From Deltaproteobacteria bacterium (GTDB lineage: Bacteria > Desulfobacterota > Desulfobulbia > Desulfobulbales > SURF-16): a stretch of 42,767 bases of DNA. A model generated the notes under the pieces. That model did no database searches, was not told the DNA's origin, and saw nothing but the letters and a program-made list of their open reading frames with translations. Shown one piece after another: positions 228-32,635 of this stretch; within the stretch, counting starts at the first letter, position 1, and each line of letters opens with the position of its first letter. The stretch is taken from NCBI GenBank assembly GCA_016208225.1, contig JACQYM010000109.1, positions 5,034-47,800 on the forward strand, written 5' to 3'. A program made the translations under genes and the position numbers.

Positions 228-231
228 GTTT

Positions 232-888
232 TTATGCCGCCGTTTTGGTAAAGATCACCAGATGACGCGTGGCCCGGCTGAAAGGCAGGGCAAGGGGCAC
301 CACCTCCCGCAGCCGGTAGGGACTGGCCGGCTGGTCATGCTGCCACTGGCTGATCTCCTCCTCGGCCCTGGGGCCCTTCATGCAGATCACCGTGCCGCCG
401 GCCGGACTGAACGGCGCCGCCAGGGCGAGAAATTCGCTGATGGCGGCGACGGCCCGGCTGGTGATGCAGGGATAGGCCGGCAGCTGGCCGGCCAGGGCGG
501 GTTCAAGACGTTTTTCCATGACTTCGACGTGGTTCAAGGCGAGGCTGCGGACAATATGGCGCAGAAAGGCGGCCCGCTTGGCCCGGGGCTCGATGAGGGT
601 CAGGTTGAGCTGCGGGCAGGCGGCCTTCAGCACCAGGCCGGGGAAACCGGCGCCGCTGCCCACATCCAGCAGCTCGGGCTTTTCCCCGGGCAGATGGGGC
701 AGCAGGGTGAGGGAATCGAGAAAATGGGTCTCAATGATTTCCTGCGTCGGTGCCCTGGCCACCAGATTCATCTTCAGGTTCCACTTGGCGAGTTCCGTGT
801 AATAGCGGGCCAGACGATCAATCTCCCGGCTGCCGAGCTGCAGCCCGAGGGCCTTGCTGCCCTGCACAAGTAAGTCCCGTGGCGTCAT
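232..888 (-). CDS. rsmG: 16S rRNA m7G527 methyltransferase
   Basis: WNxx[24 protein letters not shown] motif, SRA, MKG. Confidence 0.95.
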
Positions 889-896
889 GGCAACAA

Positions 897-2210
897 TCAG
901 CTCTGGTCGTCAAGCCTGATCACCACCGAGCGGGCATGGGCGGTCAGCCCCTCCAGGTTGGCCAGATTGACGATATGTTCGGCATCGGCCAGAAAGGCCC
1001 GGCGGGAGCAGGAAATCAGGCTGCTTTTTTTGAGAAATGTTTCCACGCCCAGGGACGAGGAGATGCGGGCCGTGCCCATGGTGGGCAGCACATGATTCGG
1101 ACCGGCCACATAGTCGCCGTAGGCCTCGGGGGAATAATCGCCGAGGAAGATCGCCCCGGCATGGCGGATGGCGGGCAGCCAGTTGAAGGGGTCGGTCACC
1201 ATCAGTTCCAGGTGCTCGATGGCGATGTCATTGGCAATTTCCATGGCCTCCTCCAGCGAGCCGCAGACCAGAATGGCGCCCCGGTCGGTGAGGGACTTGC
1301 GGGCAATCCACTCGCGGCTCAGCAGCTGCAGCTGTTTTTCCAGCTCCATGACGGTGCGGTCGGCCACATCCTGGCTGGTGGTAACCAGCATGGCCAGGGC
1401 CTGGGGGTCATGCTCGGCCTGGGCCAGCATGTCCGCGGCGATAAAGGCCGGGTTGGCCGTCTGGTCGGCCACGATGAGCACCTCGCTGGGTCCGGCGATC
1501 ATATCGATCCCCACCCGGCCCGCCACCTGGCGTTTGGCCTCGGTGACATACTGATTGCCCGGTCCGACGATGACGTCAACCGCCGGAATGATGCCGGTGC
1601 CGTACGCCAGGGCCGCAATGGCCCAGGCGCTGCCGGCCTTGTAGATCTGGGTGATGCCGATTTCCTGGGCCGCCACCAGCAGGGCGGGATGCACCATGCC
1701 CCGTTCATTGGGCGGGGTGACCATGATGCGGTGTTTTACCCCGGCAATGCCCGCCGGGATGCCGTTCATCAGCACCGACGAGACCAGCGGCGTTTTCCCG
1801 CCCTGGCCGCCAGGCACGTAAAGGCCGGCATAGGCCACCGGCCGCACCAGGCGGCCGGTGATGGAGCCGTCCTCCCTGGTGAGAATCCAGGACTGCTCCA
1901 TCTCCCGTTCATGGAAGGTCTGGATGCGCTCTTTGGCCAGCCGCAGGCTCTGCATCAGGTTATCGTCAACCTGGGCGTAGGCCTCGGCCAGCTCGGACTC
2001 CGAGACCCGCAGCTGGTCAATGGTCATGTTCGGGGCGTCGAAGCGGCGGGTGTACTCCAGCAGGGCCTCGTCGCCCCGCTCCCGGACGGCCTGAAGGATG
2101 GCGCTGACCGCCTGTCGGCAGATGTCGTCAGCCAGTTGAAAACGATAGGTCAGTCGGGCCAGAGAGCGCTTGCCCTCGATTGATTGGGTAGTGCATGGGG
2201 TAATGATCAT
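897..2210 (-). CDS. hisD: Histidinol dehydrogenase
   Basis: [47 protein letters not shown]. Confidence 0.97.
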
Positions 2211-2222
2211 TTTAGATCTCCT

Positions 2223-2322
2223 GAATTGCGGATCTTATGGATTGCGGATTTCGGATTGCGGATTTCGGATTGCCATCAACCATCAATCATGAGCCATCAG
2301 CTATGAGCCATGAGCCATCAGC
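2223..2322. repeat. Two adjacent heptamer tandem tracts (GGATTGC/GGATTTC, then TCAACCA/TGAGCCA)
   Basis: Period-7 repeats directly visible in the hisD-cytochrome intergenic region. Confidence 0.85.
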
Positions 2323-4042
2323 TTTCTTGATATACCGGGCATTTTATCTCAGGGCTGTAATTTTTATACGCCGGATCATTATACTCCTTGTGGCATTCCA
2401 GGCAGAGGCCGACGCGCAGGATGCGGGCCAGCTCCTCCTTGTTGAACGGCCGCACCGCCGGACGGGAGCTTTTCTGCAGAGGAGTGCCGTCAATGGTGAC
2501 ATAGGCGTCCAAGGCCGGCGTCCGGCCCGCCGCCGTCTCAATGCCCTGGTCGGTGCCGGCAAAATGCCAGGCCCCGTTTTCCCGCCACACCGTGCCTTCG
2601 CCCAGGCCCAGCACCTTGGGGGAGAGGTGGCAATCCGTACAGCTCCTGCCCCCGGCCTGGGTGGTATGGGGGTTGATGGCCGCCATGGTGAGGCTGTTGA
2701 ACTGGCGGTCCGGCCGGCCTTTCTGGTCAATCAGGGTGACCACGTCCTGGCAGCCGGGGGTGACGATCACCACCTCTTCATCCCACATGGCCAGCATCGG
2801 CCGTTCAAAGCGCAGATAGGAGCGGCCCTCGTTCCACCAGCCCGCTGTTTCCGTCAGCGTCAGCTTGTCCAGATGGGTCTCGGTCATGTCGCGCTTCACG
2901 TGACAGCCGTAACACTGGGGGACCCAGAGGGAGTGGCACGCCTCGCAGCCCACCCGTTTGTGGCCGGCAAAGTCGCACACCCCGGCCTTGGGCGGCTTCA
3001 AGGGGTGTTTTTTGTCGCTGATCTTATTGTTGAGCAGCCAGGAGTCGCCTTCCCGGCTGACATTGTTCAGCTTCTCATTTTTCCTGGTCTGGCCCGGGAC
3101 CAGGCCTTCGCCGCTCTGTCCGGCACTGACATGGCAGGTGGCGCAGCTGATCTCGAGCTGCTCTTCGTAATGGGCATAGTTGGTGCCGTCGCCCATGATC
3201 TCGTTTCGGGTATGGCAGTCGATGCAGGCCATGCCGCGTTGATAATGGATGTCAGCGGGCAGGTCAAGATAAAAGCGGTCGCCGGGCAGCCTTTTTTCCG
3301 ACATTCGGCCATTGCTGTACGGGGTGCCGTAATTTTCCGATTCATAGACGCCGGTATAGCTTATGCCGATGCGGCCGCTCCGGTTGTGGCAGCGGACACA
3401 GTTCTCCACCGGGATCTTTTTGATGATCAGCGGGTGGATTTTTTTGGCCTCTTCCGGGGGCAGCTTCGGGTCCTTGATGAAATGGCAGGCAGTGCAGCCG
3501 CCGCCTTTTTCGCCGAAGAATCCGGGCAGATCGCCTTTCTGTTTCCACAGATGGCAGGTGCCGCACAGTTTGCGGAAATAATCCAGGGCGAGGGAGGTCT
3601 CGCCGCTTGCCAGCAGTTTTTCCACCGAATAGTCGCCGTTCTGGTCCGGGGCCTCGCCCCAGTAGTAGAGCAGGGTGGCCAGAATGCCGCGGTTGGTGGC
3701 CATCAGGGAGTTTTTCACCTTTTTGACGTCCGCCGCGTGGCACCCCTCGATGCCGCAGGTTTTTTCCACCAGCCGCAGATCGCCCGGATTCTTGACAATG
3801 CCCGCATGGGCCTTTTCCTTGTCAATGGCCAGGGCATCGCCCAGATGGCAGGGGGAGCAGCCGATCACCAGCCGGTCGTGGGCCGCGTCCAGTTTCTCCG
3901 TGGTATGACAGCTCAGGCACATCTCGACCTGACCGGAGGTGGTCTGATAGAGGCGCTCCGGCCGCTTGGTCAGATTTTCGCGGATGACCAGCAGCAGCAC
4001 GACCAGCAGAACCAGGAAAAGCACAAGCCGGGATTTCGACAT
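2318..4042 (-). CDS. Membrane-anchored or exported multiheme cytochrome c (11 CxxCH + 1 CX4CH)
   Basis: Motifs CLSCH, CSPCH, CGIEGCH, CGTCH, CTACH, CVRCH, CIDCH, CATCH, CEACH, CYGCH, CTDCH, CLECH. N-terminal basic plus hydrophobic segment. Start placed at ATG 4042, 1 nt after the nadE stop. Confidence 0.9.
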   Translation of the reverse strand: MSKSRLVLFLVLLVVLLLVIRENLTKRPERLYQTTSGQVEMCLSCHTTEKLDAAHDRLVIGCSPCHLGDALAIDKEKAHAGIVKNPGDLRLVEKTCGIEGCHAADVKKVKNSLMATNRGILATLLYYWGEAPDQNGDYSVEKLLASGETSLALDYFRKLCGTCHLWKQKGDLPGFFGEKGGGCTACHFIKDPKLPPEEAKKIHPLIIKKIPVENCVRCHNRSGRIGISYTGVYESENYGTPYSNGRMSEKRLPGDRFYLDLPADIHYQRGMACIDCHTRNEIMGDGTNYAHYEEQLEISCATCHVSAGQSGEGLVPGQTRKNEKLNNVSREGDSWLLNNKISDKKHPLKPPKAGVCDFAGHKRVGCEACHSLWVPQCYGCHVKRDMTETHLDKLTLTETAGWWNEGRSYLRFERPMLAMWDEEVVIVTPGCQDVVTLIDQKGRPDRQFNSLTMAAINPHTTQAGGRSCTDCHLSPKVLGLGEGTVWRENGAWHFAGTDQGIETAAGRTPALDAYVTIDGTPLQKSSRPAVRPFNKEELARILRVGLCLECHKEYNDPAYKNYSPEIKCPVYQES

Positions 4043-4043
4043 C

Positions 4044-5681
4044 TTATTCCCTGAAATTCTGGGCAATGGGATAGCGGCGGCCGTAGCCGAAGGCCTTGGA
4101 GGTGACTTTCAGCCCCATGGCCGCCTGCTGCCGTTTGTATTCGTTGCGTTTGATGCGGCGGACGATGTCTTCCACGATATGGCGGTCAAAACCCCGGCGG
4201 ACGATGTCGTCGATGGCAAGATGCTCCTCCAGGTAGGCGGCGAGGATGGGATCGAGCACCTCGTAAGGGGGCAGGTCATCCTGGTCCTTCTGGTCCGGGG
4301 CCAGCTCGGCGCTGGGGGCGCGGCTGATGGTGCGGGCCGGGATGATTTCCCTGTCCCGGTTGACAAAGCGGGCCAGGGCATAGACCATCTGTTTGGGGAT
4401 GTCGGCGAGCAGGGAAAGGGCGCCGGCCATATCGCCGTACAGGGTGCAGTAGCCCACTGCCATTTCCGATTTGTTGCCGGTGGAGAGCAGCAGGGCGTTG
4501 AATTTGTTGGCCAGGGCCATGAGCAGTGTGCCGCGGATGCGGGCCTGGATGTTCTGTTCGGTGATGTCCTCCTGCAGACCGGTGAAAAGAGGTGCGAGGG
4601 TGCTGCGGAAGGAGGCAAAGGTGTCGGAGATATTCAGGGTCTCCAGGCGGATGCCCAGGTTGGCGGCCAGCCGGTCGGCGTCGGTAATGCTTTCCATGGA
4701 CGTGTAAGGGGAGGGCAGGGCCACCCCCATGACGTTTTCAGGGCCCAGGGCCTCGCAGGCAATGGCGCAGGTCAGGGCCGAATCGATGCCGCCGCTTACG
4801 CCGATCAATACCCTGGAGAAACCGCATTTTCTGATGTAGTCCCGGCAGCCCATGGCCAGGGCCTGGAAAACAAGGGCGGTTTCATCAGTTGCCGCCGGCG
4901 CCGCCGGCGCCGGCAACCGGTCGGTGTCGATGACGAGCATCTCTTCGCAGAAGGAGGCGGCCTGGCGGCGGAGGCAGCCGTCTTGGCCCAGCACCAGGCT
5001 CGCCCCGTCAAACAGCACGCTGTCCTGGCCCCCGACCTGGTTGACATAGAGCATGGGGGTCTGATATTTGCGGCAGAGCTGGGAGAAAATCGTCAGCCGG
5101 AGCTGCTGCTTGCCCATGGTGAAAGGGGAGGCGGCGATATTGATGAGCAGATCGATGCCGGACCGGGTCAGGTCGGCGACCGGATTGACCTGATAGAGCG
5201 GATGGGGAAAGCTGTCCTCATCGTTGAAGATATCCTCGCAGATGGTGATGCCCAGGCGCAATCCCTTGTAGGGAAAGGGGATGCTCGCCTCGCCCGGTTC
5301 AAAATAACGGGCCTCGTCAAAGACATCATAGGTGGGCAGCAGCCGCTTGTGGGCGGCAAACAGAATGCTGCCGTTCTCAAAGAGCAGGGCGCTGTTGTGC
5401 AGGGGCTTGCCCGTGCTGCCGCTATGGCGGGTGATGGCCCCGCACAGCACGCCGATGCCGCGGACGTCCGCGACCAGGGCGTTGATGGCGGCTTCCTGCT
5501 GGCCCAGAAACGCCTCATGCTCCAGGTAATCCTGCGGCGGGTAGCCGCTGATGGCGTGTTCCGGCAGCACGGCCAGCCCGCAGCCGGCCTGGGCGGCTTT
5601 TTCAAGGTAGCGGCTGATTTTGGCGATATTGCCGGGAAAATCACCGATAACCGGATTTAATTGAATGAGGGCGACTTTCAT
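4044..5681 (-). CDS. nadE: Glutamine-dependent NAD+ synthetase
   Basis: Nitrilase-like domain (PE..GYPPQD, KRLLPTYDVFDE, ICED) plus SGGIDS, NIQARIRG, TGNKSE, GYCTLYGD, PSAEL. Start at MKVALIQ. Confidence 0.95.
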   Translation of the reverse strand: MKVALIQLNPVIGDFPGNIAKISRYLEKAAQAGCGLAVLPEHAISGYPPQDYLEHEAFLGQQEAAINALVADVRGIGVLCGAITRHSGSTGKPLHNSALLFENGSILFAAHKRLLPTYDVFDEARYFEPGEASIPFPYKGLRLGITICEDIFNDEDSFPHPLYQVNPVADLTRSGIDLLINIAASPFTMGKQQLRLTIFSQLCRKYQTPMLYVNQVGGQDSVLFDGASLVLGQDGCLRRQAASFCEEMLVIDTDRLPAPAAPAATDETALVFQALAMGCRDYIRKCGFSRVLIGVSGGIDSALTCAIACEALGPENVMGVALPSPYTSMESITDADRLAANLGIRLETLNISDTFASFRSTLAPLFTGLQEDITEQNIQARIRGTLLMALANKFNALLLSTGNKSEMAVGYCTLYGDMAGALSLLADIPKQMVYALARFVNRDREIIPARTISRAPSAELAPDQKDQDDLPPYEVLDPILAAYLEEHLAIDDIVRRGFDRHIVEDIVRRIKRNEYKRQQAAMGLKVTSKAFGYGRRYPIAQNFRE

Positions 5682-5687
5682 ATCAGG

Positions 5688-5772
5688 TGATGGCTCATGG
5701 CTCATGGGTAATAGTTTATAGTTAATGGTTGACTGCCCGCGGGTTTTTGGTTTTGCTCATGAGCCATGAGCT
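5688..5772. repeat. Heptamer tract (TGGCTCA/TAGTTAA type) and short inverted copy
   Basis: Period-7 repeats. 5688-5732 is an in-register reverse complement of 2276-2320. Confidence 0.8.
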
Positions 5773-17863: not shown

Positions 17864-17939
<76 letters not shown>

Positions 17940-20582: not shown

Positions 20583-20984
20583 GTGGAACAACAGGCTCTC
20601 CTTGATCTTCTTTATGTCGCGGCATTTACCCTTTGCGGTCTCGGCTTTGGTTTTGGCCCCCTCCTCATTGTTTATCTCTTCTCCCCGCGCGGCACCCGCA
20701 ATCTCGTCAACAAGACAAGAATCCCTATTGAGTGCGGTATGGAAACCATAGGTCCTGCCTGGATTCGATACGGTATTGTCTATTATCTGTATGCCTTGAT
20801 GTTTCTGGCCTTTGATGTGGATGTGCTGTTTCTTTTTCCCGTGGCAGCGGTTTATAACGATTTCCCCGGGATGCGGGGGTTTGTCGAAATTGTTTTATTT
20901 GTCGCGGTTCTTTCACTGGCGATTGTTTATGCATGGAATAAGGGAGTGTTCAAGTGGGAACGGAAAGTATACCAACAGCAGTAG
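20583..20984 (+). CDS. nuoA: Complex I-like subunit A
   Basis: [24 protein letters not shown]. Confidence 0.93.
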
Positions 20985-21490
20985 AGAGTGCTATACCCCC
21001 TGCATTGTTGCAGTTTCATCAACTTGATAAACTGCGGATGCTGGCCAGGGCAAACTCATTGTGGCCCATGACCTTCGGCTTGGCCTGCTGCGCCATTGAG
21101 ATGCTGTCAAGCGGCTGCGCCCGTTTTGACCTGTCGCGTTTCGGTGCGGAGGTTTTCCGTCCGTCACCGCGGCAAAGCGATGTGATGATCGTTGCCGGCA
21201 CCCTCAATAAAAAGATGTTGCCCGCCGTCAAGATCCTTTATGACCAGATGCCGGAACCCAAGTGGGTTATCGCCATGGGAAACTGCGCGATTTCCGGCGG
21301 TCCTTTTGTTTTTCCGGGTCAATATAATGTTGTGGAAGGAGTGGACAGCTTTCTGCCGGTTGATGTCTATATCCCCGGTTGTCCGCCGCGTCCTGAGGCC
21401 CTGATTGAGGGATTGCTGGAACTGGAGGAAAAGATTACCGGTCACCGGCGCTGGCCGCGGGTGAAACCGGAAACAGCGGTCAAGGGTTGA
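20954..21490 (+). CDS. nuoB: Complex I-like subunit B
   Basis: [30 protein letters not shown]. Confidence 0.96.
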
Positions 21491-21574
21491 GCCGGAGCAG
21501 CATTTACCACTCACAGGTTGCCGGGTATTTACAGGTACTGCCGGTTATGGTGAGTTCACCTTCATGGTAACGTT

Positions 21575-22141
21575 ATGGATCGAGCTAAAATAAAAAGAGA
21601 ACTGGAAAAGTTGGCCGCTGCAGGTATGCCTGCCGAGCAACCGCAGGAAGCAGCGGCGCCGGTGGAAGTCCAAGCTGAAGGAGAGGGAGAGGGCAAGCCG
21701 AAGCCCAAGGCCAAGAAGGAAGAGGATGCCCCCCCCCGAAAAAATGGCCTGATCGAAACGGAATATGCAAAACGGGGCGCTCATCTTGATGTGCAGATCA
21801 ACCCGGATCAGGTGGTCAGCGCGGCTGAATTCCTGGATGGCGAGGGGATGACCCTGGAGATGGTGACCGGCGTTGACTGGATCAAGGAGAATCAGTTCGA
21901 AGTCATTTATGACTATTCCTATACCGGCGGCCAGCTGTTGCGGGTGGTGGTGCGGGCCAGAGTTGACCGGAACAAGCCCGACATTGCCACTGTTTGTCAT
22001 ATCTTTGGGGGCGCAAACTGGCATGAGAGGGAGACCTGGGAATTGCTGGGCATCAATTTTGTCGGTCATCCGCAGCTTGAACACTTCCTGTTGCCGGAAG
22101 ATGCTGATTTTTTCCCATTACGTAAGGATTTCAAACCATGA
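21575..22141 (+). CDS. nuoC: Complex I-like subunit C with charged N-terminal extension
   Basis: VTGVDW, ANWHERE, GHP, PLRKDF. Confidence 0.93.
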   Translation: MDRAKIKRELEKLAAAGMPAEQPQEAAAPVEVQAEGEGEGKPKPKAKKEEDAPPRKNGLIETEYAKRGAHLDVQINPDQVVSAAEFLDGEGMTLEMVTGVDWIKENQFEVIYDYSYTGGQLLRVVVRARVDRNKPDIATVCHIFGGANWHERETWELLGINFVGHPQLEHFLLPEDADFFPLRKDFKP

Positions 22142-23256
22142 GTTCATTAGCCCAAAGCCAGTTGCGTGAGACCTTTGAGCTGAATATAGGTCCACAGCAT
22201 CCTGCCACCCACGGTGTACTGCGCATCAAGGTCGTCATGGACGGGGAATATATCGTCCGGGCGGAGCCTATTCTCGGCTATATTCACCGCATGCATGAGA
22301 AAATGGGCGAAAACCGGACATGGAACCAGTTCTGGCCCAATATGGGCCGGCTCGATTATCTGTCCGCCATTGCCTATAACCATTGCTATGCCTGTCTGGT
22401 GGAGCGGGCCATGGGCATCGAGGTGCCTGAGCGGGCGGAGTATATTCGCGTCATCACCGCCGAGCTGAACCGGATCCAGAGCCATCTTTTAGGCTTCGGT
22501 GCCTATATCATGGATCTTGGCGGCTTTACACCGCTCATGTACGCCATGGATGAGCGCGAGCAGATCCTCGACCTCCTGGAGTCGGTCACCGGCTCCCGCC
22601 TCACCTACTGTTATTTCCGGTTCGGCGGGGTGTATAACGATATCGATGACGACTTCATCACCGGCACCCGCGCCTTTATCAAGAGATTTCGGCCCCAGAT
22701 TCCCATGTATCATAAGCTGGTTACCGGCAATGTCATCCTGATGGACCGTCTTAATGGCGTCGGCCCCATTTCCGCGGATCTGTGCCGGAAATATGGCGCC
22801 ACCGGCCCTGTGCTGCGGGGTTCGGGCGTCAATTTTGATGTCCGCCGGAATGAACCGTACGGGGTCTATCCGGAGCTTGATTTCGATATTCCGGTGTATC
22901 ACGAATGTGATTCCATGGCCCGTTACATGGTGAGAATGGATGAGATGGTGCAGTCCTGCCGCATCATCGAAAATGCCTTGAATAAACTGCCGGAAGGGCC
23001 GGTGATGGCTGAGAAGGTGCCGAAGGCCCTGAAACCGCCCAAAGGTGATTTTCATTTTGCCGTGGAAGCCGCGCGCGGAACTTTTTCCATGAGAACCGTC
23101 AGTGACGGCACCAACACCTCGTACCGGATGAGACTGCGGTCTCCAACCTATTCCAATGTCAGCCTGTTCGAGGAGGCAAGCCGCGGGATGCTGCTTTCCG
23201 ACGCCCTGGCGTTTTTGGGAAGTCTTGATCCCGTCATCCCCGAGATGGACCGGTAA
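22138..23256 (+). CDS. nuoD: Complex I-like subunit D
   Basis: GPQHPATHGVLR, GYIHR, RLDY, EMDR C-terminus; no NiFe CxxC pairs. Confidence 0.96.
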   Translation: MSSLAQSQLRETFELNIGPQHPATHGVLRIKVVMDGEYIVRAEPILGYIHRMHEKMGENRTWNQFWPNMGRLDYLSAIAYNHCYACLVERAMGIEVPERAEYIRVITAELNRIQSHLLGFGAYIMDLGGFTPLMYAMDEREQILDLLESVTGSRLTYCYFRFGGVYNDIDDDFITGTRAFIKRFRPQIPMYHKLVTGNVILMDRLNGVGPISADLCRKYGATGPVLRGSGVNFDVRRNEPYGVYPELDFDIPVYHECDSMARYMVRMDEMVQSCRIIENALNKLPEGPVMAEKVPKALKPPKGDFHFAVEAARGTFSMRTVSDGTNTSYRMRLRSPTYSNVSLFEEASRGMLLSDALAFLGSLDPVIPEMDR

Positions 23257-23268
23257 GGAGCAAGCACG

Positions 23269-24252
23269 ATGAATGAATTAATACGATTACTCGCTTACAT
23301 GCTGGGCATTGCCGCCTTTCTTGGTTTGAATCTCGCCTATCTGGGCTGGGTCGAGAGGAAGGGCGCCGGTCATTTTCAGCGGCGGACCGGCCCGAAAGAG
23401 GTTGGGCCCTATGGACTGCTGCAGCCCCTTGCCGACGGTCTCAAGCTCATGTCAAAACAGCTTGTTGTCCCGACCAATGCCGACAGGCCGCTCTATATGT
23501 GCGCCCCGATCCTCATCATGGTGCCCTCTGTTCTGTTGTTTGTCGCCATCCCGTTTGGCGAGCATCTGGTGCCCAGGGAATTTAATTTCGGTCTGATCAT
23601 GATGTTTGCCTTTGCCTCCATGGCCGGTTTATCCATCCTGATCGGCGGCTGGGGCTCGGGGAACAAATATTCACTCATCGCCGGAACCAGGGCGGTCTCG
23701 CAGAATGTTGCCTATGAGATTCCCATGCTGATCACGGCAATCAACATCGTCCTGATCACCGGCTCCCTGGATCTGAATGAAATCGTCCGGCAGCAGGGCA
23801 GCTACATCTGGAACTGGAATGTATTCCGGCTGGATAAATCCATCCTCATGCCGGTTTCCTTCCTGGTTTTCTTTATCTGTTCCCTGGCCGAGACCAATCG
23901 TACCCCGTTTGATCTGGGTGAGTGCGAAGGCGAGCTTGTCGCCGGCTATCATACGGAATACGGCGGTATGGGGTTCGGCCTTTTCATGATGGCTGAGTAT
24001 GCCAACCTTGTCATCGGCTGCAGCCTGACCACTGTTCTCTTTCTCGGCGGCTGGCAGTGTCCGTTCGGTTTATTCCCGGGGCCGCACTGGTTCCTGCTCA
24101 AGATGTATTTTCTCATCTGGTGTTTTGTCTGGATTCGCTGGACCTATCCGCGCACCACATTCTGGGGCCTGCTGAATCTTTCCTGGAAATATCTCATTCC
24201 GTTTTCATTGGTTAACTTGTTGCTAACAGCCTTATTTATAAAGGTATTTTGA
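23269..24252 (+). CDS. nuoH: Complex I-like subunit H
   Basis: ERK...Q.R.GP, LQPLADGLK, AETNRTPFDL, ELVAGYHTEY. Confidence 0.96.
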   Translation: MNELIRLLAYMLGIAAFLGLNLAYLGWVERKGAGHFQRRTGPKEVGPYGLLQPLADGLKLMSKQLVVPTNADRPLYMCAPILIMVPSVLLFVAIPFGEHLVPREFNFGLIMMFAFASMAGLSILIGGWGSGNKYSLIAGTRAVSQNVAYEIPMLITAINIVLITGSLDLNEIVRQQGSYIWNWNVFRLDKSILMPVSFLVFFICSLAETNRTPFDLGECEGELVAGYHTEYGGMGFGLFMMAEYANLVIGCSLTTVLFLGGWQCPFGLFPGPHWFLLKMYFLIWCFVWIRWTYPRTTFWGLLNLSWKYLIPFSLVNLLLTALFIKVF

Positions 24253-24254
24253 TT

Positions 24255-24824
24255 ATGTCCGGATACTTTAAAGAGATCATTACGGGATTGAAAAGTCTGG
24301 CCATCGGCTTGCAGATCACCAATAAAGAATTTTTCACCAAACCCATCACCCTGCAGTATCCCCATGAGTCGGTGAAGATGACGCCCCGCTATCGGGGCCA
24401 TATTGAACTGGTCAAGGACCCGCAGACCGGCACGCACCGGTGCATCGCCTGCGGCATGTGCGAGAAGGGCTGCCCCACGGGCTGCATTACCGTGCAGGCG
24501 GAAAAGCGGGAAGGGGTCAAGGGCAAGGTGCTGACCGCCTATATTCTCAACTTTACCACCTGCAGTCTGTGCGGTCAGTGTGTGGAAAACTGCAAGCCCG
24601 AGGCCATCAACTTTTCCAATGAGTACAATCTGGCCAGCACCCGGCGCGAAGATTACATTTTCAACCTGCTGCAAAAGCTGCATCCCGAAGGTGTTCCGGA
24701 ACCTGAGATTGATCCGGAGTTATTAAAGAAAGAACGCGAGAAAAAAGAAGCTGCAAAGAAAGAACCCGCAAAAAAAGCAGCAGCTAAGGAAGGCGGGGAA
24801 TCAAAAGCAGAGGAAAAAAGCTGA
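24255..24824 (+). CDS. nuoI: Complex I-like subunit I (2x4Fe-4S) with Lys/Glu-rich tail
   Basis: T.QYP, RYRG, CIACGMCEKGCP, CSLCGQCVENCK. Confidence 0.93.
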   Translation: MSGYFKEIITGLKSLAIGLQITNKEFFTKPITLQYPHESVKMTPRYRGHIELVKDPQTGTHRCIACGMCEKGCPTGCITVQAEKREGVKGKVLTAYILNFTTCSLCGQCVENCKPEAINFSNEYNLASTRREDYIFNLLQKLHPEGVPEPEIDPELLKKEREKKEAAKKEPAKKAAAKEGGESKAEEKS

Positions 24825-25357
24825 TGAATCCTTCACTGTTTTCACCGGAAGGTCTAGCCGGGATTATTTTCCTGATCCTGATCGGCGTGACAATACTCGG
24901 GGCGATCATAGCCACCTGTACGAAAAGGCTGATCAGAAGTGTTACCGGACTTGCGGTCTGTTTCGTGGGCGTTGCCGGACTTTACTACTTCCTGAACAGC
25001 CCCTTTGTCGCCATGATGGAACTGCTGATTTATGTCGGCGCCGTCTGTGTGACCATCGCCTTTGCCATCATGCTCGCCGAACCGGACGAGGCAAGGCTGG
25101 CGAGAAAAATCAGCGGGTTGAGCGGCGGCCTGGCCGCGATCTGCGGCGGGGCCATAGCATTTGCCCTTGGTTACGCGGCTGTCAACGGCACCTGGATGGC
25201 GGCGCCCGCTGCCCGGGCCAACGACGGATCGCTGAAGATGATCGGTGAATCCCTGCTGACCAGATACAGCATGGTATTTGAACTGATCTCGATTGTCCTG
25301 CTGGTGGCCATCATCGGCTCAATGGCTCTTGCCCGGGGCGGAAGGAGGGAAGAATAA
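24824..25357 (+). CDS. nuoJ: Complex I-like subunit J
   Basis: LIYVGAV, FELISIVLLVAIIG. Confidence 0.92.
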   Translation: MNPSLFSPEGLAGIIFLILIGVTILGAIIATCTKRLIRSVTGLAVCFVGVAGLYYFLNSPFVAMMELLIYVGAVCVTIAFAIMLAEPDEARLARKISGLSGGLAAICGGAIAFALGYAAVNGTWMAAPAARANDGSLKMIGESLLTRYSMVFELISIVLLVAIIGSMALARGGRREE

Positions 25358-25359
25358 TC

Positions 25360-25680
25360 ATGTTAACTCTCAGTTCTCAGCTCAACACGTATCTTATCAT
25401 GGGTGCCGTTCTTTTCGGATTCGGCATTTTCGGCCTGCTGCGCCGGCCGAGCCTCATCGGCATGCTGATCGCCGTGGAGCTTGTTTTAAGCGGCGCCTCG
25501 ATCAATTTTATGGCCTTTAACCGTTTTCTGGCGCCTGATCCCACGGTGGGGCAGATCATAACCCTGTTCATCATGGCCATCGCCGCGGCCGAGGCCGCCA
25601 TCTCGCTGAGCATCGTTATCGCCGTATACAGGAATTACAAGTCCATTGAAGTTGAAGACCTGGTAGAACTTAAAGGATAG
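25360..25680 (+). CDS. nuoK: Complex I-like subunit K
   Basis: VELVL, AIAAAEAA, LKG C-terminus. Confidence 0.94.
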   Translation: MLTLSSQLNTYLIMGAVLFGFGIFGLLRRPSLIGMLIAVELVLSGASINFMAFNRFLAPDPTVGQIITLFIMAIAAAEAAISLSIVIAVYRNYKSIEVEDLVELKG

Positions 25681-25694
25681 AATTGAGGATTATC

Positions 25695-27181
25695 ATGGAA
25701 ACCGTCAGCGCCGCCACCGGCGATATCGTAACCACAAGTAGATTAGTATGGACTTTGATTGTCCCGTTGCTTGGCTCCTTCCTCGTTTCATTGTCCGGGA
25801 AAAAGCCCAATCTGCGGGAGAGCTGGTCTGTCATATCTGCCGTCATACTTTTTTCACTGGTCTTAACGATGGTTTCACCGGTTTTGGCCGGGAAAACCTT
25901 TTATTATCAGCTTTTTAAAATACTGCCGGGCGTGACGGTAACCCTGCGGGCCGATGCTTTTTCCATGATCTTCGCCCTGGTCGCCTCCTCCCTCTGGATC
26001 GCGGCCGCTTTTTACTCCATGGGGTATATGCGCGGGCTGCATGAGCATGCGCAGACCCGGTTCAACACCTGTTTTGCCATTGCCATCTTCGGCGCCATCG
26101 GCGTGGCCTTCTCGGACAACCTGTTTACCATGTATCTCTTCTATGAGATCGTCAGTGTCTGCACCTACCCGCTTGTTGCGCATCATCAGGATGAAGAGGC
26201 GTATGAAGGGGCAAAAAAATATATTGTTTATCTGACCACCACGGCCAAAGGGTTTCTGCTGCCCTCCCTGGCGCTCATTTACGTGATGACCGGCTCGCTC
26301 GATTTCCCCTATAACATTTACAGCGGTATGTTCCCGGCTGATGCCAACTCCGCCATTGTTACCATGCTCTTCATCTTCTGCCTGTTCGGCTTTGCCAAAA
26401 ACGGCGTCATGCCGTTCCATCGCTGGCTGCCGGGCGCCATGGTCGCCCCGACCCCGGTCAGTGCCCTTCTCCATGCCGTGGCCGTGTCTTCTGTACCGCC
26501 CGCATGATGCTGTACGGATTCGGCGTTGATCTGATGACGTCCCTGAATCTTGGCCTGCCCACGGCCTACTTTGTCGGCTTTACCGTGGTGATGGCCTCCG
26601 TCATCGCCCTGACCAAGGATAATCTGAAAGCGCGGCTGGCCTACTCCACGGTCAGTCAGCTCTCCTATATTATCCTGGGGGTCTGTCTGCTCACCCCGCA
26701 CGGCATTGCCGGCGGTCTGATCCATATCGCCAATCACGCCTTTTCCAAAATCACCCTCTTCTTCTGCGCCGGCGCCATCTATGTCGCCACCCATAAGAAA
26801 AATATCTCCGAGATGGGCGGACTGGCGAAATCCATGCCCTTTACCTTCGGGGCCTTTGCCATCGCCTCGCCCAGCACGATCGGCGCCCCGCCGCTGGCGG
26901 GCTCTGTGACCAAATGGGAACTGCTGGTCGGCCCCATCGAATCGGGTTCCTTCGGCATCATTCTCGTCTTGCTTGCCAGTACGCTGCTCAATGTCGGTTA
27001 TTTTGCCCCGGTCGCCTACAAGGCATTTTTCGGCAAACGGCCGGCCGGCGAGCAGTATGAGGGCATCAAAGAGGCGCCATTGAGCATGGTTATTCCCCTG
27101 TGCACAGCCTCACTTATTTCGGTCATTATTGGCATCTATCCGAATTTTTTCATGAATTTTGTTAAGGCGGTGATAGGATGA
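25695..27181 (+). pseudogene. MrpD-like antiporter subunit, frameshifted at ~26486 (true lesion or sequence error)
   Basis: ORFs 25683-26507 and 26504-27181 are two halves of one protein: ...APTPVSALLHAVAV, frame change, VFCTARMMLY...LKARLAYSTVSQLSY, NHAFSK. Confidence 0.85.
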
Positions 27182-27426
27182 TTAGCTTGATTGAATTCTT
27201 CCGCGAGCGCCTGAAGGGAACTATTATCGCCTGTCTGGTTTTGATCGGCATAATAGCTCTCTGGGGGGCATTTATGGTTGATACGAGCCATGCTCATACC
27301 AAAATGGAAAAGATCCCGTTTTTCTGGAGTTTTTTTGGACTGATCGGCGGAGCGTTGCTTATTCTCCTGTCACGATTCTTCGGCCGCCTGGGAATCATGA
27401 CCCGCGAGGATTATTACGATGAATAA
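27178..27426 (+). CDS. Small 2-TM membrane protein of the complex I-like operon
   Basis: 82 aa, two hydrophobic stretches, overlaps both neighbours, ends REDYYDE. Confidence 0.8.
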   Translation: MISLIEFFRERLKGTIIACLVLIGIIALWGAFMVDTSHAHTKMEKIPFFWSFFGLIGGALLILLSRFFGRLGIMTREDYYDE

Positions 27427-29197
27427 TTTCTGGATGCATCCCGCATTGATACTGATCATCGGCGGACTCGTTCTGCCCCTGATGAAAGGGCCGATCAGGA
27501 AACCATTTCTCATGATCGTGCCGCTGCTGACCTTTCTGAACGTGCTGGCCCTGGATGAAGGGGTACACGGCGTGGTGCAGTTCATTGACTGGCACCTCGT
27601 CTTCGGCCGGGTTGACAACCTGAGCCAGATATTCGGCTATATCATGTCGCTCATGTGTATCATCGGCACCCTCTTTGCCTTGAATGTCGAGGAGGATGCG
27701 CAGCATATCGCGGCCTGGTTTTATGTGGCCGGCTCCCTTGGCGTCATCTTCTGCGGCGATTATGTCGTCCTCTTCCTCTTCTGGGAACTGATGGCCTTTG
27801 CCTCCGTTTTTCTGGTCTGGTTCCGCCGTGGTCCGCAGTCGCTGGCCACCGGCTACCGGTATTTGCTCGTGCATACGCTGGGCGGGCTTTTCCTGCTGGC
27901 CGGTTTTGTGCTGCGCTACTATAATACCGGCGGCGACATTTCCTTTGTCCCCCTGGGCGTTGATACCCCGAACCTGGCCACCTATCTGATTCTGATGGGT
28001 TTCATCGTCAACGCCGCCGTGCCGCCCTTCCACTCCTGGCTGCCGGACGCCTATGCCGAAGCCAGTGTCGCCGGCGCCGTGTTCATGTGCGCCTTTACCA
28101 CCAAAACGGCAATCTATGTCCTGGCCCGCGGCTTTGCCGGCATGGATATTCTTATCCCCCTTGGTGCCGTCATGGCGCTCTATGGGGTGGTCTACGGAGT
28201 CATTGAAAATGACGGCCGCCGCATTTTTGCCTGGGATACGGTGAGCCAGGTCGGCTACATGGTGGTGGGCGTCGGCATCGGCTCCAATCTGGCCATCAAC
28301 GGCGCCTGTGCCCATGCCTTTGCCCATATCCTTTATAACGGTCTGCTGTTCATGGGCACCGGCTCGGTGCTGTACATGACCGGCACCTGCAAGCTCAACG
28401 AACTGGGCGGTCTCTACCGGAAGATGCCGCGCACCTTTCTCTTTACCATGATCGGCGGCCTGTCCATTGCAGGTTTTCCGTTATTCAGCGGTTTTGTCAG
28501 CAAGTCAATGATCATCTCCGCCGGGTTCGAGTCGCATCAGACTCTGGCCGCCTTTGCCCTGCTGCTGGCCTCCGGCGGTACATTCCTGCTGGCCGGTCTG
28601 AAGGTGCCCTACTTTATCTGGTTCGGCAAGAACAACTGCAGCAGCGAGCGATGGGAAAAGGCGGCTGATCCGCCATGGAACATGCAGGCCGCCATGGCTA
28701 TCGCCTCGGTGATGTGCGCCTTTATCGGCTGCTATACGGCGTATCTCTATAACATGCTGCCGTTTCCGGTCGACTACCATCCCTATTCGGCCTACCATCT
28801 GTCCGAGACATTCCAGATTATCGGCACCTGCGGCATCATGTTTTTTGTCCTGAAACGGTTCATGGAGCCCACCGCCACCATCAGTCTTGATCTTGACTGG
28901 TTTTACCGGATGGCCGGCCGCGGTTTCATGTGGATTGACAGCAGGATATTCCAGTTTATCGACACCTGTGTCGGTGAAATTTACCGTTATATCGGTCTCT
29001 TCCCGTTAATGACCATTTCCCGCTTCTGGTCATGGTTTGACTGGAATGCCATCGACGGCGTGGTGGACGGCACGGCCCGGTCGGTGCGGTCCATCGGCGG
29101 CGTAGTGCGCAAGGTGCAGGCTGGTAATTTACAATACAATATATTCTTTGCCGCTACCTTCGTTGCAGGGGCGGTACTGATCTTTGTATTTGTTTGA
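27419..29197 (+). CDS. Antiporter-like subunit (MrpD/NuoL family) carrying a NuoL-type lateral helix
   Basis: FWELM, HSWLPDAY, FTTK, ELGGL, GFPLFSGFVSK; C-terminal DWFY...IDGVV...QAGNLQY plus final TM. Confidence 0.88.
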   Translation: MNNFWMHPALILIIGGLVLPLMKGPIRKPFLMIVPLLTFLNVLALDEGVHGVVQFIDWHLVFGRVDNLSQIFGYIMSLMCIIGTLFALNVEEDAQHIAAWFYVAGSLGVIFCGDYVVLFLFWELMAFASVFLVWFRRGPQSLATGYRYLLVHTLGGLFLLAGFVLRYYNTGGDISFVPLGVDTPNLATYLILMGFIVNAAVPPFHSWLPDAYAEASVAGAVFMCAFTTKTAIYVLARGFAGMDILIPLGAVMALYGVVYGVIENDGRRIFAWDTVSQVGYMVVGVGIGSNLAINGACAHAFAHILYNGLLFMGTGSVLYMTGTCKLNELGGLYRKMPRTFLFTMIGGLSIAGFPLFSGFVSKSMIISAGFESHQTLAAFALLLASGGTFLLAGLKVPYFIWFGKNNCSSERWEKAADPPWNMQAAMAIASVMCAFIGCYTAYLYNMLPFPVDYHPYSAYHLSETFQIIGTCGIMFFVLKRFMEPTATISLDLDWFYRMAGRGFMWIDSRIFQFIDTCVGEIYRYIGLFPLMTISRFWSWFDWNAIDGVVDGTARSVRSIGGVVRKVQAGNLQYNIFFAATFVAGAVLIFVFV

Positions 29198-29251
29198 GGG
29201 ATCGAACGGCAAAACTCTCTCAGTAATATTATTGAATAGAGGAAAGTGGTA

Positions 29252-30757
29252 ATGGATTTTTTAATAATGAATGAAGGGTTTCCCCTCTTAAGCACCCTCG
29301 TCTTTCTTCCTTTGGCAGGGGCGTTTATCCTGCTGTTTCTGCCGGGAGAGAATGTGCAGCGCCTCTGGGCCATGATCGTCACCTCGGTCACGGCGGGCAT
29401 ATCCCTGTCCCTCTATTCAGGATTTGACTCCGCCACGGCCAAATATCAGTTCGGCGAGCACATCAGCTGGATTCCCTCCTTGAATATCAATTATACCCTT
29501 GGCATTGACGGCATCAGCCTGCTGCTTGTCCTGCTGACCACCCTCATCATGCCTTTATGTGTTCTCGGCTCCTGGACCTATATCAAGGTCCGGGTGAAGG
29601 AATTCATGATCTGTCTGCTGATCATGGAAACCGCCATGCTCGGCGTTTTCATGGCCCTGGATTTCGTCCTTTTCTATGTGCTGTGGGAGGCCATGCTCAT
29701 CCCCATGTACCTGCTGATCGGTGTATGGGGCGGGCCGCGCAAGATCTATGCCTCCATCAAGTTCTTCCTCTACACCCTGGCCGGCTCCGTCATGCTGCTT
29801 GTGGCCATTATCGCCCTGTATCTCAAAACCGGTTCCTTCAGTATCCCGGTAATGATGGGACAGGATTATTCATCCACATTCCAGATCTGGGTATTTTTGG
29901 CCTTCTTCCTCGCCTTTGCCATCAAGGTTCCCATGTTCCCCTTTCATACATGGTTGCCCGCGGCCCATGTCGAGGCCCCCACCGCCGGCAGTGTGATTCT
30001 GGCCAGTATTCTGCTGAAGATGGGCACCTATGGTTTTCTGCGTTTCTGTCTGCCGATCACGCCGCTGGCAACCCTGAGCCTCGGACCATATGTCCTGTGG
30101 CTGTCGGTGGCGGCCATTCTTTACGGCGGCTTTACCGCCCTGGCCCAGTCTGATATGAAGAAGCTGATCGCTTACTCCAGCGTCGGACATATGGGATTTG
30201 TCACCCTCGGTATTTTTTTCCTGAACCGCCAGGGTCTGGAAGGGGCCATTCTGCAGATGATCAATCACGGCGTCACCACCGGCGCCCTGTTCCTCTGCGT
30301 TGGTATGATGTATGAGCGGACGCACAGCCGGGAGATTGCCGATCATTCGGGCATCGCCCAGAACCTGCCGATATTCGTGTCGTTTCTGACCATTTTTTCC
30401 CTCTCCTCCCTGGCCTTTCCGGCAACGAACAGTTTTGTCGGCGAATTTCTCGTGCTGGCCGGGGCATTCAGCGTCAATAAGATAGTCGCCGGTGCCGCCA
30501 TCCCGGGCGCCATTCTGGCCGCCGCCTACATGATGCGTCTGCTGCAGCATGTTCTCTTCCGCGGACCCGGTCGGCCTGATATCGCTGATTTGAATATCCG
30601 TGAGATTGTAACGCTTGCACCCCTGCTCTGCTTTGTGTTCTGGATCGGTTTAGCGCCTGAGCCTTTTTTAAGCGTCATGCATACCAGTGTTGATAATTTG
30701 ATCCAGCAGGTAAATGTGGCCAGAACGGCACAGGTTGCCATGCTCCTGGCGCCGTAG
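29252..30757 (+). CDS. nuoM: Complex I-like subunit M
   Basis: GIDGIS, WEAMLIP, IKVPMFPFHTWLP.AHVEAP, LLKMG.YG, YSSVGHMG, FVGEF. Confidence 0.95.
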   Translation: MDFLIMNEGFPLLSTLVFLPLAGAFILLFLPGENVQRLWAMIVTSVTAGISLSLYSGFDSATAKYQFGEHISWIPSLNINYTLGIDGISLLLVLLTTLIMPLCVLGSWTYIKVRVKEFMICLLIMETAMLGVFMALDFVLFYVLWEAMLIPMYLLIGVWGGPRKIYASIKFFLYTLAGSVMLLVAIIALYLKTGSFSIPVMMGQDYSSTFQIWVFLAFFLAFAIKVPMFPFHTWLPAAHVEAPTAGSVILASILLKMGTYGFLRFCLPITPLATLSLGPYVLWLSVAAILYGGFTALAQSDMKKLIAYSSVGHMGFVTLGIFFLNRQGLEGAILQMINHGVTTGALFLCVGMMYERTHSREIADHSGIAQNLPIFVSFLTIFSLSSLAFPATNSFVGEFLVLAGAFSVNKIVAGAAIPGAILAAAYMMRLLQHVLFRGPGRPDIADLNIREIVTLAPLLCFVFWIGLAPEPFLSVMHTSVDNLIQQVNVARTAQVAMLLAP

Positions 30758-30843
30758 CCGTTGATTCATAGTCGACGCAGTTTTGAGTTTTAACCGCGTA
30801 GTTATTATTAAGGCAAGCTGATCATACAGTATAAGGATTACAC

Positions 30844-32259
30844 ATGTTGTTCGCACCAGAGTTAGTACTGTTAATAGGGAGTCTGGTTCTCTTCGGCCTC
30901 TGTCTCGGGGAGGAGAAAGGAAATCTGGCGAAATTCGCGGCCCTTGTGCTGGCTGTCGTCGCAGCCATAGCGAGCCTTGCCACCTTGAATATGTCGGGCA
31001 GCCTGTTTTATGAAGCCTACCGCATCGATCTTTTCTCGCAGCTGTTCAAGCTCGCCATTTCCGTCGGCCTGATAGCCGTGTTGATGTTCAGCACGGAATC
31101 AAAGGGTATTTCCGTTCGCATGCGGGCCGAATATTATCTTTTCATGATTCTGAGCACCCTTGGCCTGGTGATGATGGTCAGCAGTGTTGAGTTGCTCTCC
31201 CTGTTCATCGCGCTGGAACTTTCCTCATACTCCCTCTATCTGATGGTGCCGATGCGCAACGACCAGAAAGGTTTGAAGGTGCAGATGGAGGCGGCAATCA
31301 AATATGTTCTCTTTGGTGTGGTTGCCACGGGCACCATGCTGTATGGCATGAGTTTCATTTTCGGCATGACCGGCACCACCTATTTAAATGAACTGGTGCC
31401 CAGGATGCATTCTCTTGTCGCCTCCCCCACGACCCTGCTGGCCATTGCCCTGTTCATGGCAGGCTTTTTTTATAAGCTTGCCGTATTTCCCTTTCATTTC
31501 TGGGTGCCGGATGTGTATCAGGGGGCGGCCAACGCCACGACCGCCTTCATTGCCTCCATCCCGAAACTTGGCGCCGTTGCCATTCTGATCCGCATCACCA
31601 CCCTGGTCGCTCCCACGGGCGGAGAGGCGGTGGTCACCATGCTGATGATCCTTGCCGTCTGTTCCATGTTCTACGGCAACCTGTCGGCCCTGGTGCAGAA
31701 AGACATCAAGCGCATGCTCGGCTTTTCCGGTATTTCCCATGCGGGTTTTGTGCTGCTTGGTCTGCTGACCTTGAAGGAGACCGGCTATGCGACTTCCATG
31801 TATTATATCACCGGTTATGTTTTCATGAACCTTGCCTGTTTTCTGGTGATCTGCAAAGTTTCGCAGAAGGGCGAGAATCTCTGCATCGATGATCTGAGCG
31901 GTCTCTATAAACGGGCGCCGCTCCTCGCCCTGACGCTGCTGGTGGGCATGATGGCCCTGGCCGGGATCCCGCCCTTTGTCGGCTTCATGGGCAAATTCAT
32001 GCTGTTGACCGGCGCCCTGCGCGCCGGGCATCTGACCCTGGTCATTCTGGCCGCGCTCAATACCGCCATTGCCATCTATTATTATCTGTCCGTGGTGCGG
32101 GTGGCATTCTGCAGCGCCCCGGAAGAGCGTCCGGATGTGCCGGTTGACCTGATGACCCGATGCGTCAGCATTTCATTGATTGCGGTCATCATTTTCATGG
32201 GGGTGGCGCCCAAACAGATTGTTGAAATTGCCGCAACTGCTGTGCGGACCATCCTCTAG
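30844..32259 (+). CDS. nuoN: Complex I-like subunit N
   Basis: LELSS, EAAIKY, KLAVFPFHFWVPDVYQGA, PK, AGIPPF.GF.GK, YYYL. Confidence 0.95.
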   Translation: MLFAPELVLLIGSLVLFGLCLGEEKGNLAKFAALVLAVVAAIASLATLNMSGSLFYEAYRIDLFSQLFKLAISVGLIAVLMFSTESKGISVRMRAEYYLFMILSTLGLVMMVSSVELLSLFIALELSSYSLYLMVPMRNDQKGLKVQMEAAIKYVLFGVVATGTMLYGMSFIFGMTGTTYLNELVPRMHSLVASPTTLLAIALFMAGFFYKLAVFPFHFWVPDVYQGAANATTAFIASIPKLGAVAILIRITTLVAPTGGEAVVTMLMILAVCSMFYGNLSALVQKDIKRMLGFSGISHAGFVLLGLLTLKETGYATSMYYITGYVFMNLACFLVICKVSQKGENLCIDDLSGLYKRAPLLALTLLVGMMALAGIPPFVGFMGKFMLLTGALRAGHLTLVILAALNTAIAIYYYLSVVRVAFCSAPEERPDVPVDLMTRCVSISLIAVIIFMGVAPKQIVEIAATAVRTIL

Positions 32260-32559: not shown

Positions 32560-32635
32560 GCGGACATAGCTCAGCTGGTAGAGTACAAGCTTCCCAAGCT
32601 TGGTGTCGCGGGTTCGAATCCCGTTGTCCGCTCCA
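32560..32635 (+). tRNA. tRNA-Gly (CCC)
   Basis: GCGGACA/TGTCCGC acceptor, CAAGC-TTCCCAA-GCTTG anticodon arm, TTCGAAT T-loop, TCCA end. Confidence 0.97.

Follow-up and report, generated by a model that had tools for sequence, protein, structure and literature searches.

Which enzyme is encoded by an operon that joins the nuo genes of a complex I-type enzyme to four antiporter-like subunits and carries no canonical NuoL? This question is raised by positions 20583-32259 of a 42,767-nt stretch of contig JACQYM010000109.1 (the window, to whose positions all coordinates refer), which belongs to a metagenome-assembled genome (MAG) of a Deltaproteobacteria bacterium (assembly GCA_016208225.1; 412 contigs, 88% complete). 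A first reading made from the sequence alone (hereafter the sequence-only reading) had given the gene order as nuoA-B-C-D-H-I-J-K, an MrpD-like gene, genes for an 82-aa and a 592-aa protein, nuoM and nuoN, and our family matches agree with this order. The operon very probably encodes a four-pump, complex I-type quinone reductase of a groundwater Desulfobulbaceae bacterium, in which NuoL is replaced by a cassette related to Mrp antiporters.

The four antiporter-type subunits counted in the sequence-only reading correspond to four matches to PF00361 (Proton_antipo_M), all encoded, like the rest of the operon, on the + strand. They are D1, an MrpD-like protein of the NF006236 family (25683-27181); L592, a 592-aa antiporter-like subunit with a lateral helix that stands in for NuoL (27419-29197); NuoM (29246-30757; TIGR01972, 600.8 bits); and NuoN (30844-32259; TIGR01770, 351.7 bits against a cut-off of 332.6). 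None of the four passes the NuoL models. L592 scored 712.4 bits with NF009310 (PRK12668, 'Na+/H+ antiporter subunit D'; cut-off 564, model positions 5-581 of 584) and 150 bits with the NuoL model TIGR01974, for which the cut-off is 407.5. Between D1 and L592 lies p82 (27178-27426), an 82-aa membrane protein with two predicted helices and no Pfam or NCBIfam family.

In order to place these subunits, a quick maximum-likelihood tree of 51 antiporter-like sequences was calculated (LG+G4, branch support by the Shimodaira-Hasegawa-like approximate likelihood ratio test (SH-aLRT) only, midpoint root for drawing). D1 grouped with the 494-aa MrpD of stand-alone Mrp operons (SH-aLRT 100) and lay outside the NuoM clade. 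L592 grouped with the 590-aa subunit of the same operons (A590; SH-aLRT 100), a pair whose sister group was formed by canonical NuoL together with a HyfB-like protein (support 97). NuoM and NuoN of the operon fell inside the canonical NuoM and NuoN clades, with a support of 100 each.

The stand-alone operons of relatives consist of mrpE-F-G, an MbhD/MbhE/MnhB fusion, mrpC, two MrpD proteins of 496 and 494 aa, an 81-aa protein and the 590-aa subunit. The 494-aa MrpD is 50% identical to D1 (NF006236, 680.6 bits), the 590-aa subunit is 44% identical to L592 over residues 8-503 (NF009310, 734.4 bits), and p82 shares 35% identity with the 81-aa protein (E = 1e-6). These three-pump operons and the window have a three-gene cassette in common, the two pumps of which belong to the same NCBIfam families. 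Unlike the window, the stand-alone operons contain Mrp small subunits and no Q-module, and the helix end and transmembrane helix (TM) 16 of their long subunit are not NuoL-like. Taken together, family matches and tree indicate that NuoL as a whole was replaced by a three-gene Mrp cassette (D1, p82 and L592), rather than that one gene was added. The Mrp-derived extra module proposed in the sequence-only reading is in this respect well founded (tree support 100), but Mrp ancestry is not confined to the MrpD-like subunit and extends to the whole cassette.

Stand-alone Mrp operons were seen at locus L120 (G026:C25, 3039-10744), at locus L119 and at three Desulfotignum loci (L093, L096, L104). They encode three antiporter-like subunits, and their MrpA is split into the 590-aa helix subunit and the separate MbhD/MbhE/MnhB fusion.

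The small protein p82 has two motifs, a conserved HAHT and, at its C-terminus, EDYYD. It was present in 20/20 relatives with a length of 82-88 aa, and no Pfam match above cut-off was obtained for any of 19 alignment members, even at E <= 1. According to the alignment, it is homologous to an 84-aa hypothetical protein encoded on pSymA of Sinorhizobium meliloti.

This plasmid provides the closest published counterpart of the operon. In the green complex I of rhizobia (Degli Esposti and Martinez-Romero, FEMS Microbiol Ecol 92:fiw084, 2016; as cited in PMC9040806 and PMC7415380), NuoL is described as replaced by two MrpD-like subunits, giving four pumps (PMC9040806; PMC7415380). With L592 as the query, plasmids of the pSymA type were found in Sinorhizobium and Rhizobium, with 47% identity along the full length. 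The second nuo cluster of S. meliloti, carried by pSymA, comprises nuoJ-K, a 487-aa MrpD-family protein, the 84-aa protein, a 586-aa 'Na+/H+ antiporter subunit D', nuoM-N and nuoA-B-C-D-E-F-G. Its proteins are 47% (MrpD2) identical to L592, 56% to D1 and 53% to NuoM. In the tree, the D1, L592 and NuoM groups each include the S. meliloti protein; S. meliloti NuoN instead grouped with canonical NuoN.

Window and S. meliloti share the same K-MrpD-small protein-MrpD2-M-N block with its NF006236 and NF009310 families, an 88-residue link between TM15 and TM16 of the long subunit and an asparagine at its TM7 position. They differ in that the rhizobial order is rearranged, with J-K...M-N ahead of A-B-C-D, and in that nuoEFG are part of the rhizobial cluster and absent from the window. 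We therefore consider it highly likely that the membrane arm is that of the published green complex I and that the operon represents a further example, not a new kind of enzyme. The 'independent version' of an extended complex I envisaged in the sequence-only reading does not survive this comparison, since the pSymA block and the account in PMC9040806 show the same membrane arm; its reservation that such an operon might be known already was justified, the type having been published as green complex I. What the window adds is an EFG-less example from the Desulfobulbaceae with canonical gene order, together with a frameshift at the level of the assembly. In the secondary accounts of green complex I we found no description of a cassette shared with three-pump Mrp operons, of a mosaic clamp helix or of a modest helix length (the latter two are described below), and the primary descriptions may hold one.

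Two other known systems resemble the operon. The 2M complex I known from Nitrospira and others (Chadwick et al., ISME J 12:2668, 2018; via PMC9040806 and PMC7419157) likewise has four antiporter-like subunits and often no NuoEFG, and the rationale proposed for it is a higher number of ions moved per electron pair, or electron flow in reverse. According to these sources, its extra subunit is a second NuoM and NuoL is kept with a 26-aa helix insert, whereas in the window the extra subunit is of Mrp type, NuoL is replaced and the link is only 9-12 residues longer. Complex_I_3 of 'Ca. Manganitrophaceae' is described as having the same MrpD-like pair in place of NuoL, but five pumps, since NuoM is present twice, and an MrpD2 helix with another 26-aa insert (PMC9040806), which L592 lacks.

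The arrangement is widespread among relatives. A full-length L592 orthologue (E <= 3e-211) was found in 34/40 relatives of the same order, and the identical 13-gene order in 20/20 loci fetched at genus, family and order level. Decay or absence of the MrpD-like gene in relatives, a possibility raised in the sequence-only reading, was checked as well, and D1 was intact and the order fixed in all 20 loci. Among GTDB species genomes, at least 574 stretches encode a relative of L592. In the best 80 of these, the context was nuo in 76, Mrp in three (all Desulfotignum) and too short in one. The whole contiguous block nuoK-D1-p82-L592-nuoM-nuoN was present in 53/80, the others being mostly cut by contig ends. 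These best 80 belong mainly to Desulfobulbales (Desulfobulbaceae, Desulfurivibrionaceae, Desulfocapsa, Desulfobia), in addition to Desulfotignum and several Verrucomicrobiota. The same order occurs in Verrucomicrobiota and in two cultured bacteria, Hydrosulfovibrio ferrireducens and Desulfurivibrio dismutans (for the latter, locus L082, strain AMeS2 record).

Some relatives show further features. Three of them (G033, G032 and G021; loci L115, L116 and L117) have, beside the four-pump operon, a second, canonical EFG-less nuo operon (A-B-(C)-D-H-I-J-K-L-M-N), the NuoL of which is normal at about 640 aa. In one relative that is 100% complete (G029:C15:237729-239498), the match to the L592 orthologue is broken into three successive parts (query residues 5-252, 249-486 and 498-590), which may represent a frameshifted or decaying copy.

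In the lateral helix of L592, the sequence-only reading had counted 44 residues between DWFY and the DxxxIDG motif, compared them with about 18-20 in typical NuoL and inferred a helix lengthened to span an extra subunit as in 2M. The count itself holds (DWFY occupies residues 493-496, with 44 residues to D541 of DWNAIDG), but DWFY was the wrong reference point. Two MAFFT modes aligned the motif of canonical NuoL (FDWLY in Escherichia coli, IDE[IL]Y in three canonical NuoL of relatives) with GEIY at residues 519-522, which is 18 residues from D541 as in canonical NuoL. The AlphaFold2 model of L592 places the end of TM15 at residue 482 and the start of TM16 at residue 571. Its helices lie at 458-482, 492-537 and 545-591; the confidence is low beyond about residue 487, which makes the boundaries rough. 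The resulting link (residues 483-570; 28865-29128, + strand) measured 88-89 residues in 8/8 sequences of the green complex type, including that of S. meliloti, 76-79 in 4/4 canonical NuoL and 93-95 in both stand-alone Mrp 590-aa subunits. Counts based on hydropathy, for the sequences in which TM15 was detected, were 86-91 for the green type versus 74-81 for canonical NuoL.

These lengths give a net gain of L592 over NuoL of about 9-12 residues, corresponding to 14-18 Å if helical. The insert in the lateral helix that accommodates an extra subunit is given as 26 aa and as absent from rhizobial MrpD2 (PMC9040806), and with a link of 88 versus 76-79 residues the 26-aa insert of 2M NuoL is not found in L592. 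Alignment of the L592 C-terminus with NuoL thus does reveal a net insertion, but a smaller one than claimed (about 10 residues, not about 26), and the Mrp homologue is at least as long, so that a lengthening by the width of one subunit, as in 2M, is not supported.

The two parts of the link differ in their affinities. In profile searches against the 51 sequences, for which set size the E-values hold, L592 residues 483-512 matched the Mrp homologues (E = 6e-14 to 1.5e-6) and no canonical NuoL. Residues 510-592 matched 3/4 canonical NuoL (E = 1e-7 to 5e-6, 18-24 bits), the one from E. coli not being matched; the Mrp 590-aa subunits and the Desulfotignum homologue (L093) were not matched either, at about 1 bit each. 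A phmmer search of the C-terminal 153 residues of L592 against the PDB gave no NuoL match and only a chance match (E = 0.53). From the profiles, the clamp helix looks like a mosaic, with an Mrp-type start that includes DWFY and a NuoL-type end and anchor from about residue 510. The end of the helix appears to follow genomic context rather than the phylogeny of the core, because the core of the Desulfotignum protein is 63% identical to L592 and nested in the L592 clade, yet its helix end is not NuoL-like.

The pump residues are intact in D1, NuoM and NuoN. Key positions were those of the E. coli subunits, checked against the E. coli sequence. The TM5 glutamate is kept in all four antiporter-like subunits. 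D1 keeps E155, K239, K270, H352, H356, K360 and K415, all of which are invariant in 16 orthologues, and L592 keeps K229 (at the TM8 position of NuoM K265), H299, H303 and K362.

In the window, D1 is split into open reading frames (ORFs) of 274 aa (25683-26507) and 225 aa (26504-27181), which the sequence-only reading had not noticed. The halves match positions 4-258 (399.1 bits) and 268-492 (367.8 bits) of the 493 positions of NF006236 (PRK08375.1-1, 'cation/H+ antiporter subunit D'), each below the cut-off of 663; the intact, 96% identical orthologue at locus L013 reaches 825.5 bits. Three-frame translation places the frame shift at about 26484. A DNA alignment shows that D1 lacks, after 26483, 13 nt present in all nine relatives compared. 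These lie in the conserved TM8 'VVKVG' stretch, the lysine of which is lost. In 20/20 relatives' loci, D1 is encoded by one ORF of 489-503 aa. We compared the region 25700-27400 with Logan contigs from four public groundwater metagenome runs (X1-X4), and every public contig covering the site carried the 13 nt (4/4 runs). The X4 contig is otherwise identical to the window, that of X3 has 5 other differences, that of X2 stems from a related strain at a depth of 93, and that of X1 begins at 26484, its loose end containing the 13 nt. Programmed frameshifting was considered and rejected, as the relatives read through in one frame with the 13 extra nt.

Since the gene is intact in 20/20 relatives and the 13 nt are carried in 4/4 runs, the deletion is most likely peculiar to this assembly, either an assembly error or a rare variant, and the natural gene would be intact. 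It is improbable that D1 is a true pseudogene in this strain and that the enzyme runs on three pumps (L592, NuoM, NuoN), or that the operon is decaying: the frameshifting deletion and the missing invariant lysine are what such a history would leave, but the otherwise identical X4 contig has the 13 nt, every other gene of the operon and D1 of all 20 relatives are intact, and the genome is a fragmented MAG. We give even less credit to the view that a cation/proton antiporter of Mrp type, distinct from complex I, is built from D1, p82 and L592, either instead or in addition, their genes being merely co-transcribed with nuo. The same cassette does occur in the stand-alone mrpE-F-G-fusion-C-D-D-p81-A590 operons of relatives, and the Mrp context of the three Desulfotignum loci among the best 80 points the same way. 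However, the operon has no canonical NuoL, so that complex I would lack its distal pump and clamp, and the helix end and TM16 of L592 are NuoL-like, in a profile that the two A590 subunits and L093 do not match. PF01899 (MrpE) and PF04039 (MnhB) were not found in the 88% complete genome, none of the Mrp small subunits (MrpE, F, G, MrpB/MnhB) is encoded in the window, and the gene order is fixed in 20/20 relatives. The only other PF00361 genes of this genome lie in a Hyf/Hyc-like cluster on another contig, and two nearly complete relatives, G006 (98%) and G013 (99%), each yielded just four matches to the L592 query.

That D1 and L592 belong together was also addressed by complex prediction. The pair L592 (90-592) and D1 (16-503) scored 0.53, the best of 3 controls 0.00; runs agreed in at least 56% of contacts and partner pLDDT (predicted local distance difference test) was at least 79, with no interface returned. 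The mark applied was reached by 116/157 solved complexes and 2/215 mismatched pairs, but at scores of 0.60 or less by only 18 of those 157, plus both passing mismatches. The prediction lends weak support to the pairing and may reflect nothing but likeness to solved MrpA-MrpD complexes.

Within a single complex, the cassette could be arranged in two ways. The geometry implied by the sequence-only reading, with the order N-M-D1-L592 and the L592 helix lengthened to span D1 as in 2M, seems to us rather doubtful. It would agree with solved Mrp complexes, in which the MrpA helix is described as running along the neighbouring MrpD (PMC7419157), D1 and L592 being an Mrp-derived pair. The link is somewhat longer than the canonical one (88 versus 76-79); if DWFY is the homologue of canonical DW[LF]Y, GEIY lies exactly 26 residues further on; and the five-pump Manganitrophus enzyme, when set against rhizobial MrpD2, is reported to have another 26-aa insert (PMC9040806). 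Against this, a gain of 9-12 residues would span about 14-18 Å, compared with about 39 Å for a 26-aa insert, and the equally long or longer links of stand-alone Mrp (93-95) speak for a family trait rather than an adaptation to complex I. The NuoL-like helix end and TM16 suggest docking on NuoM/NuoN as in the canonical enzyme, and rhizobial MrpD2, from which the 26-aa insert is stated to be absent (PMC9040806), has in S. meliloti a link of the same length as L592. We regard as possible, and only slightly less doubtful, that L592 is a chimera, with an Mrp-type pump core and helix start joined to a NuoL-type helix end and anchor, that docks on NuoM/NuoN like NuoL; D1 would then lie at the distal tip, not under the strap, and be kept in place by p82. 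If true, complex I would be extended here in a second manner that differs in structure.

Several observations weigh against a four-pump enzyme of the kind we favor. Compared with canonical NuoL, L592 gains only about 10 residues in its lateral helix. L592 has Asn198 at the TM7 position where NuoL, NuoM, NuoN and D1 keep a lysine; this asparagine is invariant in 17 orthologues and occurs in S. meliloti and the Mrp 590-aa subunit, and L592 may thus not pump in the textbook way. D1 of the window is frameshifted and without its TM8 lysine, and should the deletion be real in this strain, the enzyme has at most three working pumps; sequencing depths were only 2-5 in X1, X3 and X4, and X2 is a related, not the same, strain. 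Moreover, donor, acceptor, ion and direction are inferred, and given that the S. meliloti version has nuoEFG, the donor in Desulfobulbales may differ.

The rest of the operon is of complex I type. It begins with nuoA (20583-20984; PF00507, 92.8 bits) and nuoB, which carries the N2 cluster (20954-21490; NF005012, 229 bits, cut-off 116), followed by nuoC (21575-22141; PF00329, 106.7 bits, residues 73-187 only), nuoD (22138-23256; NF004739, 427 bits, cut-off 360), nuoH (23269-24252; NF004741, 319 bits, cut-off 305), nuoI (24249-24824; TIGR01971, 114.1 bits, cut-off 113.05, residues 20-139 of 191), nuoJ (24824-25357; PF00499, 109.5 bits) and nuoK (25360-25680; NF004320, 84 bits, cut-off 57). NuoA, B, C, D, H, I, J, K, M and N all match their own Pfam families (10/10), and curated NCBIfam cut-offs are passed by NuoB, D, H, I, K, M and N. 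By these matches, the operon encodes a genuine complex I-type Q-module (NuoB, C, D, I) and proximal membrane arm (NuoH, A, J, K, N, M). There is a 2-nt gap between nuoK and D1, D1 and p82 overlap by 4 nt, and p82 and L592 by 8 nt. This tight packing of overlapping or near-abutting frames from nuoK to L592 is among the evidence for our overall reading of the operon, in which we are very confident. Pfam and NCBIfam scans of the window proteins showed no nuoE, nuoF or nuoG, and PF01512 (NuoF) was not found in the genome, which is 88% complete. The four-pump operon is the sole complex I-type enzyme found in this assembly.

Two of the subunits extend beyond their family models. NuoC is extended at its N-terminus by about 70 residues (21575-21790) and NuoI ends in a C-terminal tail of about 50 residues (24670-24824), both rich in Lys, Glu, Ala and Pro. 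From their composition, these charged extensions may offer a docking surface for an acidic electron carrier.

The operon is flanked by a Mur-type ligase gene upstream and by a tRNA gene, rimP, nusA, infB, rbfA, truB and pnp downstream. Rfam identified two tRNA genes, one at 17864-17936 (63.5 bits), 2.6 kb upstream of nuoA, and the other at 32560-32632 (68.5 bits), 0.3 kb downstream of nuoN; its scan of the window showed no regulatory RNA near the operon. At the other end, window positions 1-5700 have a high GC content (0.59-0.65) and long overlapping ORFs on both strands. Histidinol dehydrogenase (897-2210, - strand) is the sole Pfam match there; the tested + strand ORFs gave none, and the scan did not include the - strand ORFs 2318-4066 and 4044-5705. 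Elsewhere in the genome, the Hyf/Hyc-type cluster (L114; G000:C8, 11034-15508) is cut by a contig end. It encodes HyfB-like (590 aa) and HycD-like (306 aa) proteins, one of 217 aa and part of a second antiporter-like subunit, and may belong to a group 4 hydrogenase or related complex.

Regarding function, we posit that the 13 proteins assemble into one L-shaped enzyme. Because the operon has no NuoEFG and no NuoF was found in the 88% complete genome, electrons would enter at NuoI/NuoB from a low-potential donor, such as ferredoxin, or from an oxidoreductase, and not from NADH. Menaquinone would be reduced at NuoD/NuoH and the four modules would move ions. Midpoint potentials are about -400 to -500 mV for ferredoxin, -320 mV for NADH and -74 mV for menaquinone. 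At these values, electron transfer from NADH to menaquinone would hardly pay for five ions, whereas transfer from ferredoxin to menaquinone could. Four pump modules would raise the ion/electron ratio, which fits either the large driving force from ferredoxin to menaquinone or gradient-driven reverse reduction of a low-potential carrier. In the reverse direction, more ions per electron pair would make the reduction of such a carrier easier.

In the cultured relative D. dismutans, an EFG-less Nuo cluster is reported to be strongly upregulated during sulfur disproportionation, and the authors suggest an unknown electron-donating partner for it (PMC12142623). The design is widespread. Its four-pump arm is already in print and the window therefore adds little as a discovery. 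As the only complex I-type enzyme found in the assembly, and in view of the upregulation reported for the cultured relative (PMC12142623), the enzyme is likely of importance to sulfur-cycling Desulfobulbales in connecting low-potential carriers with menaquinone and the membrane gradient.

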